This document shows positions 24,349 through 29,420 of a DNA stretch of 32,000 nucleotides, one piece after another; position 1 is the first letter of the stretch, and the number at the start of each line of letters is the position of its first letter. Origin of the DNA: Acholeplasma laidlawii PG-8A (GTDB lineage Bacteria; Bacillota_I; Bacilli_A; Acholeplasmatales; Acholeplasmataceae); NCBI RefSeq assembly GCF_000018785.1, contig NC_010163.1, positions 420,001 to 452,000 of the forward strand, read 5' to 3'. The translations under genes and the position numbers were made by a program. The notes beneath the pieces were generated by a model that was not told where the DNA came from, did not search any database, and saw only the letters and a program-made list of their open reading frames with translations.

Positions 24349-24520
24349 ATAAACTACACCTACCTTATAATCATTATGTTCATTCATTATACCATAATCA
24401 ATTTCGGACCCCAAATGTGGGTAAATTTGAGGATTACGCATTAAAAATATTTTATTTTTATTTTTTACCAATAAAACACACCATGTCTTTCGTATATATG
24501 GTGAAAGGTAGGAATTACAC

Positions 24521-25486
24521 ATGAAAAAAACATTTAGTATTGCATTATTAATGATTACAGCCTTAACATTAGTAGGTTGTAAATCTGAAAACTCAAACAT
24601 ACTTGAGTTTAAAAATAAAGAAAGCGTGATGGCATTTCAACTAAGTTCATCTGTTGATGTCATAGAACAAGAAACACCAGAAACAACTACAACAAATGAA
24701 GAAACTGTTGAAGTTGTAACAGAAGAACAAGTAGAAGCTGTAGAAGAGATTAGCCCATATGTGGTCATGTTTGAAAATATGTTAGCTTCAAAAAACGGGT
24801 TTAGCCATGAAACTAAACCATCAGATTTAGAAGGTTATACACATATGCAAGTCGTAACTATTCCAGACTTCGAAGGTCAATCTAATACTTATGTTATGTA
24901 TTATAATATAACTAGCAATTTAGAAGATGACAATGACGATATGGATGATGATCATGATGAAGACGATGATGACGATGATGACGATGATGATGACAAACAT
25001 GTAAGTATTAACGACATGGAAGAGGAATTTACATTTGAAGGTATCATCCAATACAAAGATCTAACCTATACTGTCTATGGTAAACAAGAACTAGAATCCG
25101 ATGAAATGGAATTAGAATTTACAACAAAAATAGATGAAAATAACTATGTTGTTGTAAAATATGAAGTTGAATCTGCAGAAATTGAATTCCAATATGAAGT
25201 GTACCGTGAAGGTAGTAAAATTTCTGAATTTAAAGTAGAATTTGAAACTGAAGATGATGAAACAAAAATAGAATTAGAATATGCATCTGATAATCAATTT
25301 GGTAAATATGAATTTGAATTAGAAGAAAAAGACGGTAAAACAGTCTTAAAAGTAGAATTTGAAACAGAACTTGATGGCGTTTTTACAAAAGGTAAAGCAT
25401 ATTACAATGTAACTTATGATGAAAATAATCAAGCACATTATGAAATCATATTTACAAAACAAAGTGATCAAAGTCTAGAAGACTAA
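24521..25486 (+). CDS. Very acidic surface lipoprotein with a poly-Asp tract; paralog of the ectodomain of ORF 26037-27173
   Basis: Signal peptide plus lipobox [20 protein letters not shown]. Acidic tract [26 protein letters not shown]. The C-terminal half consists of E/D-rich alternating beta-strand-like repeats ([17 protein letters not shown]...). Confidence 0.8.
24923..24994 (+). repeat. GAT/GAC trinucleotide tract (includes about 3 copies of GACGATGAT) encoding poly-Asp
   Basis: 24 consecutive codons, of which 20 are Asp or Glu. 24962-24994 is a near-perfect 9-nt tandem repeat. Confidence 0.9.
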
Positions 25487-25531
25487 GTATAAACATGGTA
25501 TCATCGTATATAGATAAAGAAGGGCATTTTT

Positions 25532-26056
25532 ATGAAACTTGATCAAGACGCAATCGATAAACTAAAAAATGGCGATGATACAACATTTGAAAAACTATAC
25601 CATGACACCAAACGCGGTGTCTATGGTATCGTCTTTTCTATTTTAAGAGATCACGATAAAACCGCTGATGTACTTCAAGATGTCTATATGAAGGTGTTAA
25701 TCAAAATTAACCAGTATAAAGTAGGCACAAACTTTAATAGTTGGATTATGCAAATAGCGAAAAATTATGCAATTGATATTTATAGGCAAGAAAAGAAACA
25801 TACCCATATAGAAGATGAAGTTCTAGAACAGGTAGTATCAGAAGATAGGGATTTACCTGATGAAAAATCAAAAATACTTATGATGCTTGATAACTTAACT
25901 GAAGATGAGCGGATAGTGATTATATTAAAGGTGTTAGATGATTTAACACATAAAGAAATTTCTAAAATTATCGATAAACCAATTGGCACAGTACTCTGGC
26001 TATACCAAAAAGGTTTAGATAAATTAAAAGATTATTATGGTGAATATGATGCGTAA
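25532..26056 (+). CDS. ECF-type (group 4) sigma-70 family RNA polymerase sigma factor
   Basis: 174 aa. Region 2 (DVLQDVYMKVLIKINQY...FNSWIMQIAKNYAIDIYRQ) and region 4 HTH (LTEDERIVIILKVLDDLTHKEISKIIDKPIGTVLWLYQKGLDKLK). Confidence 0.88.
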   Translation: MKLDQDAIDKLKNGDDTTFEKLYHDTKRGVYGIVFSILRDHDKTADVLQDVYMKVLIKINQYKVGTNFNSWIMQIAKNYAIDIYRQEKKHTHIEDEVLEQVVSEDRDLPDEKSKILMMLDNLTEDERIVIILKVLDDLTHKEISKIIDKPIGTVLWLYQKGLDKLKDYYGEYDA

Positions 26057-27173
26057 AAAAGATATGTTAAACTCAATTAAATCAGATATAGAATCTCATA
26101 TTCCAAAAGATGCACCTAAAATGGATTATGCACTTATAAGTGCATTAAGAGCTGAGGAAGATTTAGGACAAGAAAGCCTTCCTAAGCGTTTTAGAATGCC
26201 TATATTTAATTTAAAAATGGTCATGAGTGTTTTACTTATATCCATTATTGCTGTAGGTATTTGGGTACTTAATACACCTAAAGGCATAAGTGAAGTAGAA
26301 CTACCGTCTGGTAAGGACATTCTAGAACAAGAAATGAATGTATTACCATTATCATTTTTATCTAATGCTTCACTTTTACCATCTGCAAAAGATCGAAATA
26401 TCAACCAAAATCTATCCTTAAATCTAAACACAAACCTTACTGATGTTTCCCCGATGGATGATTTAAAACCATTCTTAAGTCTTGTAGAATCTATTTTAAA
26501 TGGTAAGACTAAACCTGTTGTAGAGGTTAAAGTTTCCACCAATCCAGAATATGAAACCTATGTAGTTGTTCAAACATCAGATTTACTTGGTATGGGTTTT
26601 AGTTATGAATTATATTACAATGTAAAATCATTTGATAAAAAAGATGATAACACTACTTTTAGTATTGAAGGTATCATGATTAAAGATGGTTTAAACTATA
26701 CCATGTATGGTAAAAAAGAAGTAGAGTCTGATGAAGAGACCATCACAATCAGAAGTTATCTTGATGATGTAACTTATATTGAAACAATCTATGAAACAGA
26801 TACAGAAGAATCTGAGTATACCATTAAGCATGTAAAAAACAATCAAACTATTTATGAATCTGTCCTTCAAATTGAAAGTGATGAAGAAGAGTTTGAAATT
26901 GAATTAGAAATATATACAGCTTCTACAAAATCTGTTTATAAAATGAGTTATGAACTAGATGAAGATGAACCTGTAATTGAAATAGAGTTTGAAATAGAAG
27001 AACTTATAACTGGAAATAAAAAATCTGGTGAAATGTCTATATACATACGTATAGACGATGTCACCAACATGAGTCATTATGAGGTCTTTATTACGACAGA
27101 AGATGAAAGTTATGAAGAAACATATGATAGAGATGATCATGAAGATGATGACGAAGATGACTTAAGTATTTAA
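26037..27173 (+). CDS. Putative anti-sigma factor: short cytoplasmic N-terminus, one TM helix, and an acidic ectodomain paralogous to lipoprotein 24521-25486
   Basis: Overlaps the end of the sigma gene. TM helix is MVMSVLLISIIAVGIWVL. The ectodomain aligns by eye with the lipoprotein (FSIEGIMIKDGLNYTMYGKKEVESDEE vs [27 protein letters not shown]) and has an acidic C-terminus DRDDHEDDDEDD. There is no zf-HC2 motif, so the anti-sigma role rests on position and topology only. Confidence 0.6.
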   Translation: MVNMMRKKDMLNSIKSDIESHIPKDAPKMDYALISALRAEEDLGQESLPKRFRMPIFNLKMVMSVLLISIIAVGIWVLNTPKGISEVELPSGKDILEQEMNVLPLSFLSNASLLPSAKDRNINQNLSLNLNTNLTDVSPMDDLKPFLSLVESILNGKTKPVVEVKVSTNPEYETYVVVQTSDLLGMGFSYELYYNVKSFDKKDDNTTFSIEGIMIKDGLNYTMYGKKEVESDEETITIRSYLDDVTYIETIYETDTEESEYTIKHVKNNQTIYESVLQIESDEEEFEIELEIYTASTKSVYKMSYELDEDEPVIEIEFEIEELITGNKKSGEMSIYIRIDDVTNMSHYEVFITTEDESYEETYDRDDHEDDDEDDLSI

Positions 27174-27182
27174 TTAAAGATG

Positions 27183-27215
27183 AAAACTTGATTTAGGTCA
27201 AGTTTTTATTTTTAT
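27183..27215 (+). terminator. Intrinsic terminator after the sigma/anti-sigma unit
   Basis: 9-bp stem AAAACTTGA / TCAAGTTTT, 6-nt loop, followed by TTATTTTT. Confidence 0.7.
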
Positions 27216-27261: not shown

Positions 27262-27564
27262 ATGAAAGAAAATAGTTTTAAGTTAGCTAGAAATACATAT
27301 ATGGATAAATTAAAAATGTATGTACCAATTGTTGATCGTGTACATGGTAAACTACATCCTGAGTTTCATGATGTAAGACGCGTATTTGATGTACTTGATG
27401 ATAAACTTAATCAAAGTAATTTAGACTTAAAAAATGAGTTTGAAGCGTTAAAAGTAATCACTAATCATTATAAAGTACCACATGATGTATGTGAAAGTTA
27501 TGAAGCCGTTTACCAAATGCTAGAAGAACTTAATAAGGCATATGATGAAAGTGCGGTGGTCTGA
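27262..27564 (+). CDS. Small His/acid-rich helical protein of unknown function (hemerythrin/RIC-like VHGxxHPE motif)
   Basis: 100 aa. RVHGKLHPEFHDV plus a second cluster NHYKVPHDVCESYE. The stop overlaps the ATPase start (TGATG). Confidence 0.6.
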   Translation: MKENSFKLARNTYMDKLKMYVPIVDRVHGKLHPEFHDVRRVFDVLDDKLNQSNLDLKNEFEALKVITNHYKVPHDVCESYEAVYQMLEELNKAYDESAVV

Positions 27565-29420
27565 TGGTCTCATTTATACATAAACAAAGGATGAAAATCA
27601 TGATACTTTCATTCTTATTGATTGTATCAGGGTTTATAGCACATTATGTTTTCGATCAAAAACTGATATTTGATGTAACATTTATCATTGCATCTGTTAT
27701 AGGTGTATTACCGATTGCAATATCTGCCTTTCAAGCATTAAAAGTGAAAGTTATTAGTATTGATTTACTTGTTACAATTGCAGTTGTTGGTGCATTTATT
27801 ATTAAGGCATATGAAGAGTCTGCAATTGTTACATTCCTATTTTTATTTGGTGCTTATTTAGAACAAAGAACACTTAATAAGACAAGATCAGCGATTAAGG
27901 CACTAACTGAAATGGCACCTGAAACTGCACTTAAAAAGATGGATGATGGTGAGTTTTTAGAAGTTGGTATTGATGATGTAGAAGTAACTGATATTTTATT
28001 AGTTAAAACGGGTGCTAAGGTGCCTGTGGATGGTATTGTTTTAAGTGGTAGTGCCTATATTAATGAAGCAAGTATTACAGGTGAAGCAGTATCTGTTAAA
28101 AAAGTTGTCGACTCCAAAGTATTTGCAGGTACGATTTTAGATAATGGAACAATAGAAATCATTGCACAAAAAGTAGGAGAAGATACTACGTTTGGTAAAA
28201 TCATAGAACTTGTTGAAGAAGCACAAGATTCGAAGTCTGAGGCTGAAAAGTTTATTGATAGGTTTGCTACATGGTATACGCCGTTTGTTTTAGTACTTGC
28301 GCTTATTGTTTGGGTGATTACACAAGATGTAGCATTAGCTATTACAATACTCGTACTAGGTTGCCCGGGTGCGCTTGTGATTGGTGTACCAGTATCTAAT
28401 GTTGCAGGTATTGGAAATGGTGCAAGACATGGTGTGTTACTAAAGGGTAGCGAAGTGATTGGTAACTTTAGTAAGGTGGATACCATCGTTTTTGATAAAA
28501 CAGGAACACTTACAATTGGACACCCTGTACTAAGATATGAGGCTTATTATGAATTGGATAAAAAAGATATCATACCTTATATTTACAGTGTAGAAAAACA
28601 ATCAGATCATCCGCTTGCAAAGGCTATTACCAATCATTTGAAAGATGCCAAAACACTACCTATAGACCACACAGATGTTATCAAAGGTGGTGGGATTGTT
28701 GCAAGTATTCATGAAAGAAAAGTATTTATTGGAAATACAGTACTTATGAAAGATAATGGTATAGAAATAAAGTCAGATATCATGGATGAAATTAGTAGAT
28801 TAGAACATGAAGGACACTCCATAGTGCTTACGGCTATAGATGAAAAGTTAGTAAGTTTAATGGGTATTCGTGATGAAGTAAGACCGAATCTTAAAAAGGA
28901 TTTAAAACATATCAAAAAAATGGGTGTTAAAAACTTAATCGTATTATCTGGTGATAATCAAGGTAGTGTTGATATCGTAGCTAAAGAGTTAGGACTTACA
29001 AAAGCAATTGGCAACATGTTACCAGAAGATAAAGCAAACTACATTAAGGAACTAATGAATGAAGGTCATATCATCGCCTTTGTAGGGGATGGTGTGAATG
29101 ATAGTCCATCGATTGCACTTGCACATATTGGTATAGCAATGGGTGGTGGAACCGATGTTGCGATTGAAACATCAGATGTTGTATTAATGAATGATAACAT
29201 CAATAAATTACCACATGCTTTAGGGTTAGCAAAAGCAACTAAACATAATATGATCCAAAATATATTAATTGCAATAGGCGTTGTAGTCGTATTATTAGTA
29301 AGTTTATTTTGGGGTGAATGGGTGAATATGAGTATTGGTATGTTAGTTCATGAAGCAAGTATATTAGTAGTCATTTTAAATGCCATGAGACTTTTAAGAT
29401 TTAAAACAAAGATTAATTGA
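27564..29420 (+). CDS. P1B-type heavy-metal-translocating ATPase lacking an N-terminal metal-binding domain; TM motif is CPG
   Basis: ITGEAVSV (TGE), GCPGALVIGVP (28362-28370 encodes CPG), DKTGTLT, HPLAKAI (HP dipeptide) and GDGVNDSP. At 618 aa it starts directly with TM helices. Confidence 0.88.
   Translation: MVSFIHKQRMKIMILSFLLIVSGFIAHYVFDQKLIFDVTFIIASVIGVLPIAISAFQALKVKVISIDLLVTIAVVGAFIIKAYEESAIVTFLFLFGAYLEQRTLNKTRSAIKALTEMAPETALKKMDDGEFLEVGIDDVEVTDILLVKTGAKVPVDGIVLSGSAYINEASITGEAVSVKKVVDSKVFAGTILDNGTIEIIAQKVGEDTTFGKIIELVEEAQDSKSEAEKFIDRFATWYTPFVLVLALIVWVITQDVALAITILVLGCPGALVIGVPVSNVAGIGNGARHGVLLKGSEVIGNFSKVDTIVFDKTGTLTIGHPVLRYEAYYELDKKDIIPYIYSVEKQSDHPLAKAITNHLKDAKTLPIDHTDVIKGGGIVASIHERKVFIGNTVLMKDNGIEIKSDIMDEISRLEHEGHSIVLTAIDEKLVSLMGIRDEVRPNLKKDLKHIKKMGVKNLIVLSGDNQGSVDIVAKELGLTKAIGNMLPEDKANYIKELMNEGHIIAFVGDGVNDSPSIALAHIGIAMGGGTDVAIETSDVVLMNDNINKLPHALGLAKATKHNMIQNILIAIGVVVVLLVSLFWGEWVNMSIGMLVHEASILVVILNAMRLLRFKTKIN

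Follow-up and report, generated by a model that had tools for sequence, protein, structure and literature searches.

A putative extracytoplasmic function sigma factor circuit of Acholeplasma laidlawii whose candidate sensor is a paralog of the lipoprotein encoded in the same unit

Three consecutive genes, located on the + strand of a 32,000-nucleotide stretch of DNA (hereafter, the window) that corresponds to bases 420001–452000 of the single-contig genome of Acholeplasma laidlawii PG-8A (1,496,992 bp, ~31% G+C), encode an acidic lipoprotein, a sigma factor of the extracytoplasmic function (ECF) type and a single-pass membrane protein, in this order. The sigma gene lies between two paralogs, the extracytoplasmic portion of the membrane protein (the ectodomain) being homologous to the lipoprotein. 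The three genes may constitute a self-contained ECF feedback loop in which the sensor is a copy of the product and the cue is likely cationic, a reading to which we attribute an even chance of being correct. The nearest homologs of the window proteins carry the labels Acholeplasma, Acholeplasmataceae or Tenericutes. The features of the system, given in window coordinates together with the evidence by which they were delimited, are the following.

24462–24503, + strand: predicted ECF-type promoter, consisting of a T-run, the -35 core CCAATAAAA (24468–24476), 14 nt and the -10 element CGTATATA (24491–24498)
24521–25486, + strand: acidic surface lipoprotein, 321 aa (open reading frame; BLASTP against the ectodomain; homologs; AlphaFold2 (AF2) model)
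24923–24994, + strand: GAT/GAC repeat coding for an Asp-rich loop that connects lipoprotein beta-strands 3 and 4 (repeat family D1; length variable)
25532–26056, + strand: ECF (group IV) sigma factor, 174 aa (Pfam Sigma70_r2 and r4_2; TIGR02937)
26037–27173, + strand: single-pass membrane protein, anti-sigma-like, 378 aa (open reading frame; sequence-predicted topology; BLASTP)
26037–26201, + strand: cytoplasmic N-terminal segment of the membrane protein, about 45–55 aa, presumed sigma-binding (alignment of 24 homologs; AF2 helices 7–21 and 31–44)
26202–26270, + strand: predicted transmembrane helix, residues ~56–78 (read from the sequence; K/R residues precede it)
26271–27173, + strand: ectodomain, residues 79–378, lipoprotein fold plus acidic tail DRDDHEDDDEDD (BLASTP, AF2 model, alignments)
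27175–27214, + strand: stem-loop with U-run, probable intrinsic terminator (RNA fold of -17.1 kcal/mol, z = -5.55, not equaled by any of 200 shuffles)

The three proteins and the paralogy of two of them

The kinship of the lipoprotein and the ectodomain had been perceived by eye in the preliminary description of this DNA, made from the letters alone, which proposed pairwise and profile alignments as a check; both types of alignment confirm it. In BLASTP the two proteins match with E = 3e-12 and 24% identity over ~340 columns, the alignment containing all three peptide pairs that had been quoted and covering essentially the whole mature lipoprotein, as expected from the claim that the shared region extends over most of its length. 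The match exceeds what acidic composition alone could produce: the Smith-Waterman scores (255 and 251), set against 58 ± 10 and 66 ± 11 for 500 shuffles, correspond to z = 19 and z = 17. Furthermore, the anti-sigma-like protein used as a query retrieves lipobox-bearing proteins of other genomes (4e-36 and 7e-26). A joint alignment of 34 sequences displays five invariant residues (Y124, Y128, N129, G174 and E195), two alignments of the family share the invariant Y-x3-Y-N and E-G-I motifs as well as Glu positions, and glutamates are nearly invariant at positions 190/192/195, 217/220, 242 and 268. The best-kept stretch of the paralogs (25028–25105 and 26658–26735) reads F-x-x-E-G-I ... Y-G-K-x-E-x-E-S-D-E, its DNA being 73% identical over 78 nt.

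Both proteins are extremely acidic, Asp and Glu together making up 29% of the mature lipoprotein (net charge -66) and 24% of the ectodomain (net charge -48), and acidity is a property of all 62 ectodomains and lipoproteins examined, whose net charges range from -14 to -111. An Asp/His-rich tract is present in both proteins, as had been claimed, with the qualification that it forms an internal loop in the lipoprotein (24923–24994) and a C-terminal tail in the membrane protein. The repeat family D1, to which the loop belongs, also matches the acidic tail (27102–27180). The loop varies in length from zero to >60 residues across the other family members, and P0008, a 316-aa homolog 96% identical to the lipoprotein, has a shorter Asp tract.

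That the product of the first gene is a bacterial lipoprotein, i.e., a substrate of Lgt and LspA, is indicated by its signal peptide, which ends in the lipobox L-V-G-C with Cys20 encoded at 24578–24580, by the lipobox-like motif ending in Cys found in nearly all its homologs (25 collected) and by the presence in the genome of a gene for LspA (PF01252, 100.8 bits).

The product of the middle gene is, as anticipated, an ECF sigma factor, being recognized by Pfam Sigma70_r2 (1.3e-11) and r4_2 (1.7e-9) and, with 80.3 bits versus a cut-off of 42.9, by TIGR02937. Its 174 residues comprise regions sigma2 and sigma4 only, with neither region 3 nor region 1, a size and composition typical of the ECF (group IV) class. 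It is not equivalent to any of the named factors compared (SigW, SigY, SigV, SigM, SigX etc.), the best equivalog models staying far below their cut-offs (87 versus 194 bits for SigY and 83 versus 209 bits for SigW).

The gene of the membrane protein overlaps the stop codon of the sigma gene by 8–20 nt, depending on which of three close ATG triplets is the start. The protein had been described as having a short cytoplasmic N-terminus, a single transmembrane helix and no zinc-finger anti-sigma motif, and its sequence agrees on all three points: the HxxxCxxC motif is absent because the protein has no Cys at all, and an N-in topology is predicted because K/R residues precede the single helix, a hydrophobic window occurring at the equivalent place in all 13 homologs screened for a membrane helix. 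The cytoplasmic part spans 38–55 aa in 29 homologs and carries, in the 24 homologs aligned, the conserved motif M-K-K-K-x-I-K-x-x-I-K-x-x-I-E-S-H-I-P...I-D-F. The protein does not have the four-helix domain of ~80–90 aa that defines the class I anti-sigma factors, nor the HxxxCxxC that distinguishes among them the zinc-binding anti-sigma factors; it shares instead with anti-sigma factors of the RseA/RsiW/RsiV type a gene that adjoins or overlaps the sigma gene, a single N-in helix and an extracytoplasmic domain. Its position, topology and conserved N-terminal helix make it a candidate anti-sigma factor.

Gene orders, promoter and predicted regulon

The possible conservation of the triad in other genomes, raised in the preliminary description, is borne out: the three genes occur together at 17 loci of the Acholeplasmataceae type and at 13 loci of other families, their linkage spanning at least eight families, and the module, far from being private to the A. 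laidlawii genome, is widespread in the class. Two gene orders exist, lipoprotein–sigma–sensor as in the window (order A) and sigma–sensor–lipoprotein (order B). The coupled position of the sigma and membrane-protein genes is preserved at every locus having all three genes; among the three-gene loci of relatives, an intact sigma gene adjoins the anti-sigma-like gene in 26 of 27, the sigma reading frame of the remaining locus, that of the closest relative (L022), being cut by an in-frame stop. The proposal that the three genes form one unit stands, since at least 30 genomes keep them together and the lipoprotein gene is preceded by an ECF-type promoter.

Between this predicted promoter (24462–24503) and the downstream ribosome-binding site of the lipoprotein gene there are 17 nt. 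The pattern TTTTnnACCAAYAAAA-N13-15-(C/T)GTWTA is conserved upstream of lipoprotein genes at ~35 loci belonging to several families, in a region otherwise unconserved, and the spacing between CCAAT and CGT/TGT is 17 nt in 28 sites and 18 nt in 7. In either gene order the lipoprotein gene has the motif in front of it; this gene leads the operon in order A, and in order B at least four of the eight loci have the motif ahead of the sigma gene as well. The presence of a conserved CGT-type -10 promoter (CCAAYAAAA-N13-15-CGTWTA) ahead of its own operon is a further attribute of an ECF system, and we infer that the CCAAT...CGT promoter is used by this very sigma factor, which would be autoregulated.

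The extent of the regulon was estimated in two ways. A matrix built exclusively from the sites of relatives, with the reversed sequence as the null (maximum 19.8), was used to scan the 1.5-Mb genome of A. laidlawii; the best site proved to be the lipoprotein promoter, with a score of 36.4, followed by two sites belonging to a second ECF system with scores of 30.4 and 28.2. An exact-pattern search of five complete or nearly complete genomes yielded a single CGT-type site in each, invariably before the lipoprotein gene of the three-gene unit. The genome of A. laidlawii has no exact CGT-type match other than the lipoprotein promoter. Judged by strong consensus sites, the regulon would coincide with the factor's own operon, the lipoprotein being the sole non-regulatory product found.

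The second ECF sigma/anti-sigma pair is encoded ~6 kb upstream of the window start (genome 411716–414323; L053 5716–8323). It comprises an ectodomain of the same type (350 aa; matched by the family profile with E = 6e-37), which is the third genomic copy of the domain shared by lipoprotein and ectodomain, and no lipoprotein; TGT-type promoter-like sites (ACCAATAAAA-N-TTGTATATTAAG) lie before its sigma gene and before the next gene, whose product, an exported protein of 310 aa that contains an RsgI_M domain (PF23750, 3.6e-23), is the apparent target of this second system. The ECF-type sigma genes detected in the genome are two intact ones, both associated with a shared-domain ectodomain, and one with an in-frame stop; the latter, at genome 132892–133320, is an ECF-like frame (TIGR02937, 48.6 bits) interrupted by one TAG and may be a broken gene or a gene boundary.

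Five lipoproteins of the family were found without a neighboring sigma gene, two of them preceded by the motif and three lacking it. Solo lipoproteins of family f7 (L059, L060 and L066, from genomes of 2.3–3.4 Mb), having neither a neighboring sigma gene nor the promoter motif, form a tight clade of their own; the shared domain can therefore exist outside a sigma circuit.

In many relatives (L023–L035) the spacer between the lipoprotein and sigma genes contains an extended -10 (TGnTAnAAT) and a strong hairpin, often with AAGGAG/CTCCTT, followed by the real ribosome-binding site; this arrangement may act as an internal housekeeping promoter, stabilize the 5' end or terminate transcription in part. 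The 45-nt spacer of the window (25487–25531) has no hairpin.

At the other end of the unit, the stem-loop at 27175–27214 is followed by a TATAAT-like box ahead of the next gene and probably separates the three-gene operon from a downstream ATPase unit (27262–29420), in which a 100-aa gene ends at the start codon of a gene for a heavy-metal P1B ATPase devoid of the N-terminal metal-binding domain. The small product is hemerythrin-like, with a weak match (7e-10) to the C-terminal part of the RIC/ScdA di-iron proteins, and the pair is retained in two close relatives regardless of the presence of the sigma module. The possibility that these two genes belong to the conserved unit was considered and rejected. 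They are neighbors and not parts of it, because a terminator and a separate -10 box intervene, because among the loci examined the pair adjoins the three-gene unit only in L022, and because another relative, G031, has the pair still in place, the sigma module being deleted.

Fold, distribution and descent of the shared domain

The domain common to the lipoprotein and the ectodomain had not been recognized in the preliminary description, and it does not correspond to any known family in the resources consulted. Neither window protein gives a match below E = 0.01 in Pfam-A 2025 or NCBIfam release 20; Pfam yields only three isolated sub-threshold matches (E 0.004–0.01, one or two members each) with 33 homologs and nothing below E = 0.047 with six distant members; and a profile of the domain finds nothing below E = 0.06 among the PDB sequences. 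Structure prediction, which had been suggested as a way of identifying the domain, gave a fold for which Foldseek detects no significant relative in the PDB. The AF2 model of the lipoprotein, obtained with the family alignment as input (predicted local distance difference test score (pLDDT) 76.5, predicted template-modeling score (pTM) 0.72), consists of helices at 33–48, 68–75 and 78–92 followed by 14 antiparallel strands joined mostly by two-residue turns, i.e., a beta-meander; that of the ectodomain (pLDDT 71) has the same layout, with helices at 99–110 and 140–155 and then ~15 strands. With either model Foldseek found no PDB match at E ≤ 0.001, the best template-modeling (TM) score being ≤ 0.26, and the best non-significant matches were generic barrels, avidins, lipovitellin and OspA. 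Along the strands, hydrophobic residues alternate with Glu, and in the model the nearly invariant glutamates flank beta-turns. The universal acidity of the domain and these conserved glutamates suggest that it binds cations.

Searches with a single sequence gave the impression of a domain restricted to Acholeplasmataceae (33 of 101 genomes), and a profile search detected it far more widely, in 109 of a class-wide sample of 399 genomes, with matches in 11 of 30 families and in all 22 genomes of one of them; by the same profile search, four well-sampled families are devoid of it (from 0 of 21 to 0 of 49 genomes). In a library of 1.84 billion proteins, 1407 clusters at 50% identity match with E ≤ 1e-3, 446 of which with E ≤ 1e-30, and the match starts at residue 1 in some of them (lipoprotein form) and near residue 55–60 in others (anti-sigma form). 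The shared domain is, in short, undescribed and widespread in the class.

Lipoproteins and sensors do not form two clades in the tree of 62 domain sequences. A stricter tree, limited to 46 rows by exclusion of the long or odd ones, requires five to six changes of the lipoprotein/sensor label, and within each of three major lineages the sensors branch either among the lipoproteins of that lineage or as their sister group. A single ancient split into a lipoprotein clade and a sensor clade is rejected (approximately unbiased (AU) test, p = 0.0017; 0 of 200 bootstrap trees with one change), subject to a caveat about composition. Such a topology is compatible with repeated events of duplication, domain replacement or gene conversion, by which sensor and product would have stayed matched, and the result is as expected if selection keeps the lipoprotein/sensor pair matched. 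Strict concerted evolution, genome by genome, is unsupported, the rank of a protein's own partner being often mediocre.

The proposed feedback loop, its alternatives and its significance

The sequence of events that would best accommodate these data begins with the membrane protein, which would use its short N-terminal helix to retain the sigma factor at the membrane. An extracellular cue would act on the ectodomain and lead to the removal of the anti-sigma, for which regulated proteolysis with an M50 site-2 protease as the final enzyme is a plausible route, and the freed sigma factor would transcribe the lipoprotein–sigma–anti-sigma genes from the CCAAT...CGT promoter. The lipoprotein, endowed with the same binding surface and anchored on the same face of the membrane, would take up the cue and turn the sensor off, the outcome being a negative feedback that matches the supply of lipoprotein to the demand. 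An M50 protease gene (PF02163, 209 bits) is found at genome 1205559–1207016 and, having both this enzyme and LspA, the organism could release the sigma factor by proteolysis as well as process the lipoprotein. As the cue we envisage divalent metal ions, polyamines or cationic peptides, a cationic nature being suggested by the net charges of the family, from -14 to -111, and by the conserved glutamates flanking the beta-turns.

Several observations weigh against this feedback loop. Promoter use and co-transcription are deduced from conservation only; both the exact-pattern and the matrix scans miss weak or divergent promoters, so that "only target" means "only strong consensus site". The N-terminus does not correspond to a known anti-sigma domain, a profile of 24 N-termini having found no PDB chain at E ≤ 10 and Pfam having found no match with the individual members. 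Lipoprotein and sensor of the same genome are barely more alike than those of different genomes (0.29 vs 0.24), and because this slight excess shrinks further when polar residues are omitted, a composition shared within lineages may contribute to the tree result. Amphipathic strands with one hydrophobic face would fit a hydrophobic ligand equally well. Finally, the module is dispensable, being present in only 4 of the 10 genomes of the genus, and it has been lost by G031 (L083 5186–6108), a very close relative whose flanking genes are 93–99% identical: ~2.15 kb, corresponding to the rest of the lipoprotein gene and to the sigma and sensor genes, are missing, and the lipoprotein remnant stops after residue 123. 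The loss was probably due to recombination or slippage between the acidic tracts of the two paralogs, because the junction lies within these GAT/GAC-rich tracts, which correspond to 24954–24981 and 27133–27160 of the window.

A more specific version of the feedback loop would regard the system as a homeostat that senses its own product, a type so far undescribed among ECF systems: the lipoprotein would be the only output, the anti-sigma would read the lipoprotein pool by means of the same new fold, either by pairing with it or by competing with it for a cation held by the conserved glutamates next to the beta-turns, and sensor and product would have been re-matched several times within the class. 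This version is put forward tentatively, as a possibility with less than an even chance. In a different explanation, unlikely in our opinion, the lipoprotein plays the part of RseB, binding the ectodomain in the manner of a homodimer and shielding it from the first cleavage, so that its loss, shedding or titration would induce the operon and its level would be the quantity sensed. The layout and promoter evidence speak for such a partner as they do for the feedback loop, the grouping of same-lineage lipoproteins and sensors in the tree is what a mutually recognizing pair would produce, and the hydrophobic face of the amphipathic strands could pack on a second copy; yet the confident AF2 monomer (pTM 0.72) suggests that this face is already buried, mutual repulsion is to be expected of two partners with net charges of -66 and -48 in the absence of bridging cations, and same-genome pairs are hardly more alike than pairs taken across genomes. 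A ligand of a quite different nature would be implied if the meander were a half-barrel with a greasy interior accommodating a lipid, fatty acid or sterol, like LolA, RseB and LprG, and responding to membrane-lipid supply or to amphiphiles, its acidity merely keeping the domain off the anionic membrane. The alternation of hydrophobic residues and Glu along most strands, the helices that precede the sheet as in LolA-type proteins and the weak, non-significant resemblance that Foldseek reports to barrels and to sheets that bind lipids (VDAC/Tom40, lipovitellin, FABP-like) would agree with this idea, which is nevertheless very improbable considering that no Foldseek match reaches E ≤ 0.001 or a TM-score above 0.26, that LolA, RseB and LprG are not among the Foldseek matches listed and that no sequence match to their families was found.

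The sensor might alternatively serve as a sentinel for surface damage, in that agents harming the lipoprotein coat (proteases, detergents, failed export or lipidation) would harm the sensor as well, causing its proteolysis and the replacement of the lipoprotein. Mollicutes-type bacteria are wall-less and their surface lipoproteins are therefore directly exposed, a circumstance that suits this explanation, as do the finding that the only strong target detected for the sigma factor is a lipoprotein-led operon and the retention by the sensor of the entire fold of the product, beyond a mere binding site. The near-invariance of specific glutamates and the uniform strong acidity of the family would nonetheless find no explanation, and no candidate for a site-1 protease was identified; we consider this possibility rather improbable. 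Improbable to a still greater degree is the absence of any functional coupling, according to which an ordinary surface lipoprotein would be incidentally both paralog and neighbor of the membrane protein, the real targets of the sigma factor lying elsewhere. The existence of solo lipoproteins without a nearby sigma gene, three of the five without the motif, and of a second system in the same genome that pairs such an ectodomain with a different exported protein of the RsgI_M type could be explained in this way. The three-gene linkage, however, persists over two gene orders and at least eight families, the promoter motif moves with the lipoprotein gene when the order changes, and none of the five genomes searched contains another strong CGT-type site.

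The feedback loop proposed here can be compared with four known systems. In the sigmaE–RseA–RseB system encoded in the rpoE operon of Escherichia coli, RseB is not a paralog of the periplasmic domain of RseA. Common to this system and to that proposed for A. laidlawii are an ECF sigma factor, an adjoining single-pass N-in anti-sigma and an extracytoplasmic accessory protein within an autoregulated operon, as well as an expected release by proteolysis ending with an M50 site-2 protease. Unlike RseB and RseA, on the other hand, the accessory protein and the sensor domain considered here share one fold, and the accessory protein is a lipoprotein encoded by the first gene after the ECF promoter. 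Nor was the RseB/LolA fold, an unclosed barrel with a helical lid, detected in either protein by Foldseek or, below 0.06, by the PDB sequence profile; the N-terminal segment is far shorter than that of RseA and unrelated to it in sequence, and the organism, unlike E. coli, has neither outer membrane nor wall.

The SigI–RsgI systems of Clostridium thermocellum and Bacillus subtilis offer a parallel for the duplicated domain, since in C. thermocellum RsgI carries carbohydrate-binding or glycosidase modules that are found also in cellulosome components. There, as is proposed here, the sensor ectodomain copies a module of the proteins induced by the sigma factor, and sensor and product see the same external substance; the A. 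laidlawii factor, however, is a plain two-domain ECF sigma and not of the SigI type, and Pfam finds neither RsgI_N nor RsgI_M in the membrane protein. Likewise, the outer domain of the staphylococcal BlaR1/MecR1 sensors, which combine it with a zinc-protease domain, act on a repressor and have a known ligand, displays the penicillin-binding/beta-lactamase fold and is paralogous to the class of proteins that handle the inducer, so that one ligand is bound by both the sensor and the induced effector; signaling is proteolytic there and would be so here, whereas the use of a sigma/anti-sigma pair in place of a zinc protease and a repressor, and the lack of any relation in sequence or fold, set the two apart. 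As to the shortness of the cytoplasmic segment, the class II anti-sigmas such as CnrY of Cupriavidus and those of the NepR type bind sigma with just one or two helices, and CnrY makes use of a separate periplasmic metal sensor, CnrX. The presumed sigma-binding segment of the A. laidlawii protein is similarly very short and does not form a four-helix class I domain; no sequence similarity to these factors was found and, in contrast to the case of CnrY, the anti-sigma-like protein itself carries the sensor domain.

To our knowledge, little is known of how wall-less bacteria sense the outside. A limited text search of the literature retrieved no publication dealing with ECF systems of Acholeplasma or Tenericutes, and the main text of the ECF reclassification by Casas-Pastor et al. 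2021 (PMC7826278) mentions neither Tenericutes nor Acholeplasma nor lipoprotein. The present analysis adds a study of the promoter and of the predicted regulon, shows that the genes occur in two orders, tests the descent of the pair by means of a tree and brings to light both a second system in the genome and the loss of the module from a close relative. If the feedback loop operates as proposed, it would be a very small circuit of a culturable laboratory organism, comprising a single promoter and a single output, its regulon being limited to one operon. A model and a structure of the shared domain would allow the annotation of thousands of proteins now labeled "hypothetical" and, beside SigI/RsgI and BlaR1, the A. 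laidlawii system would suggest that making the sensor a copy of the product is possibly a recurrent way to build a sensor.

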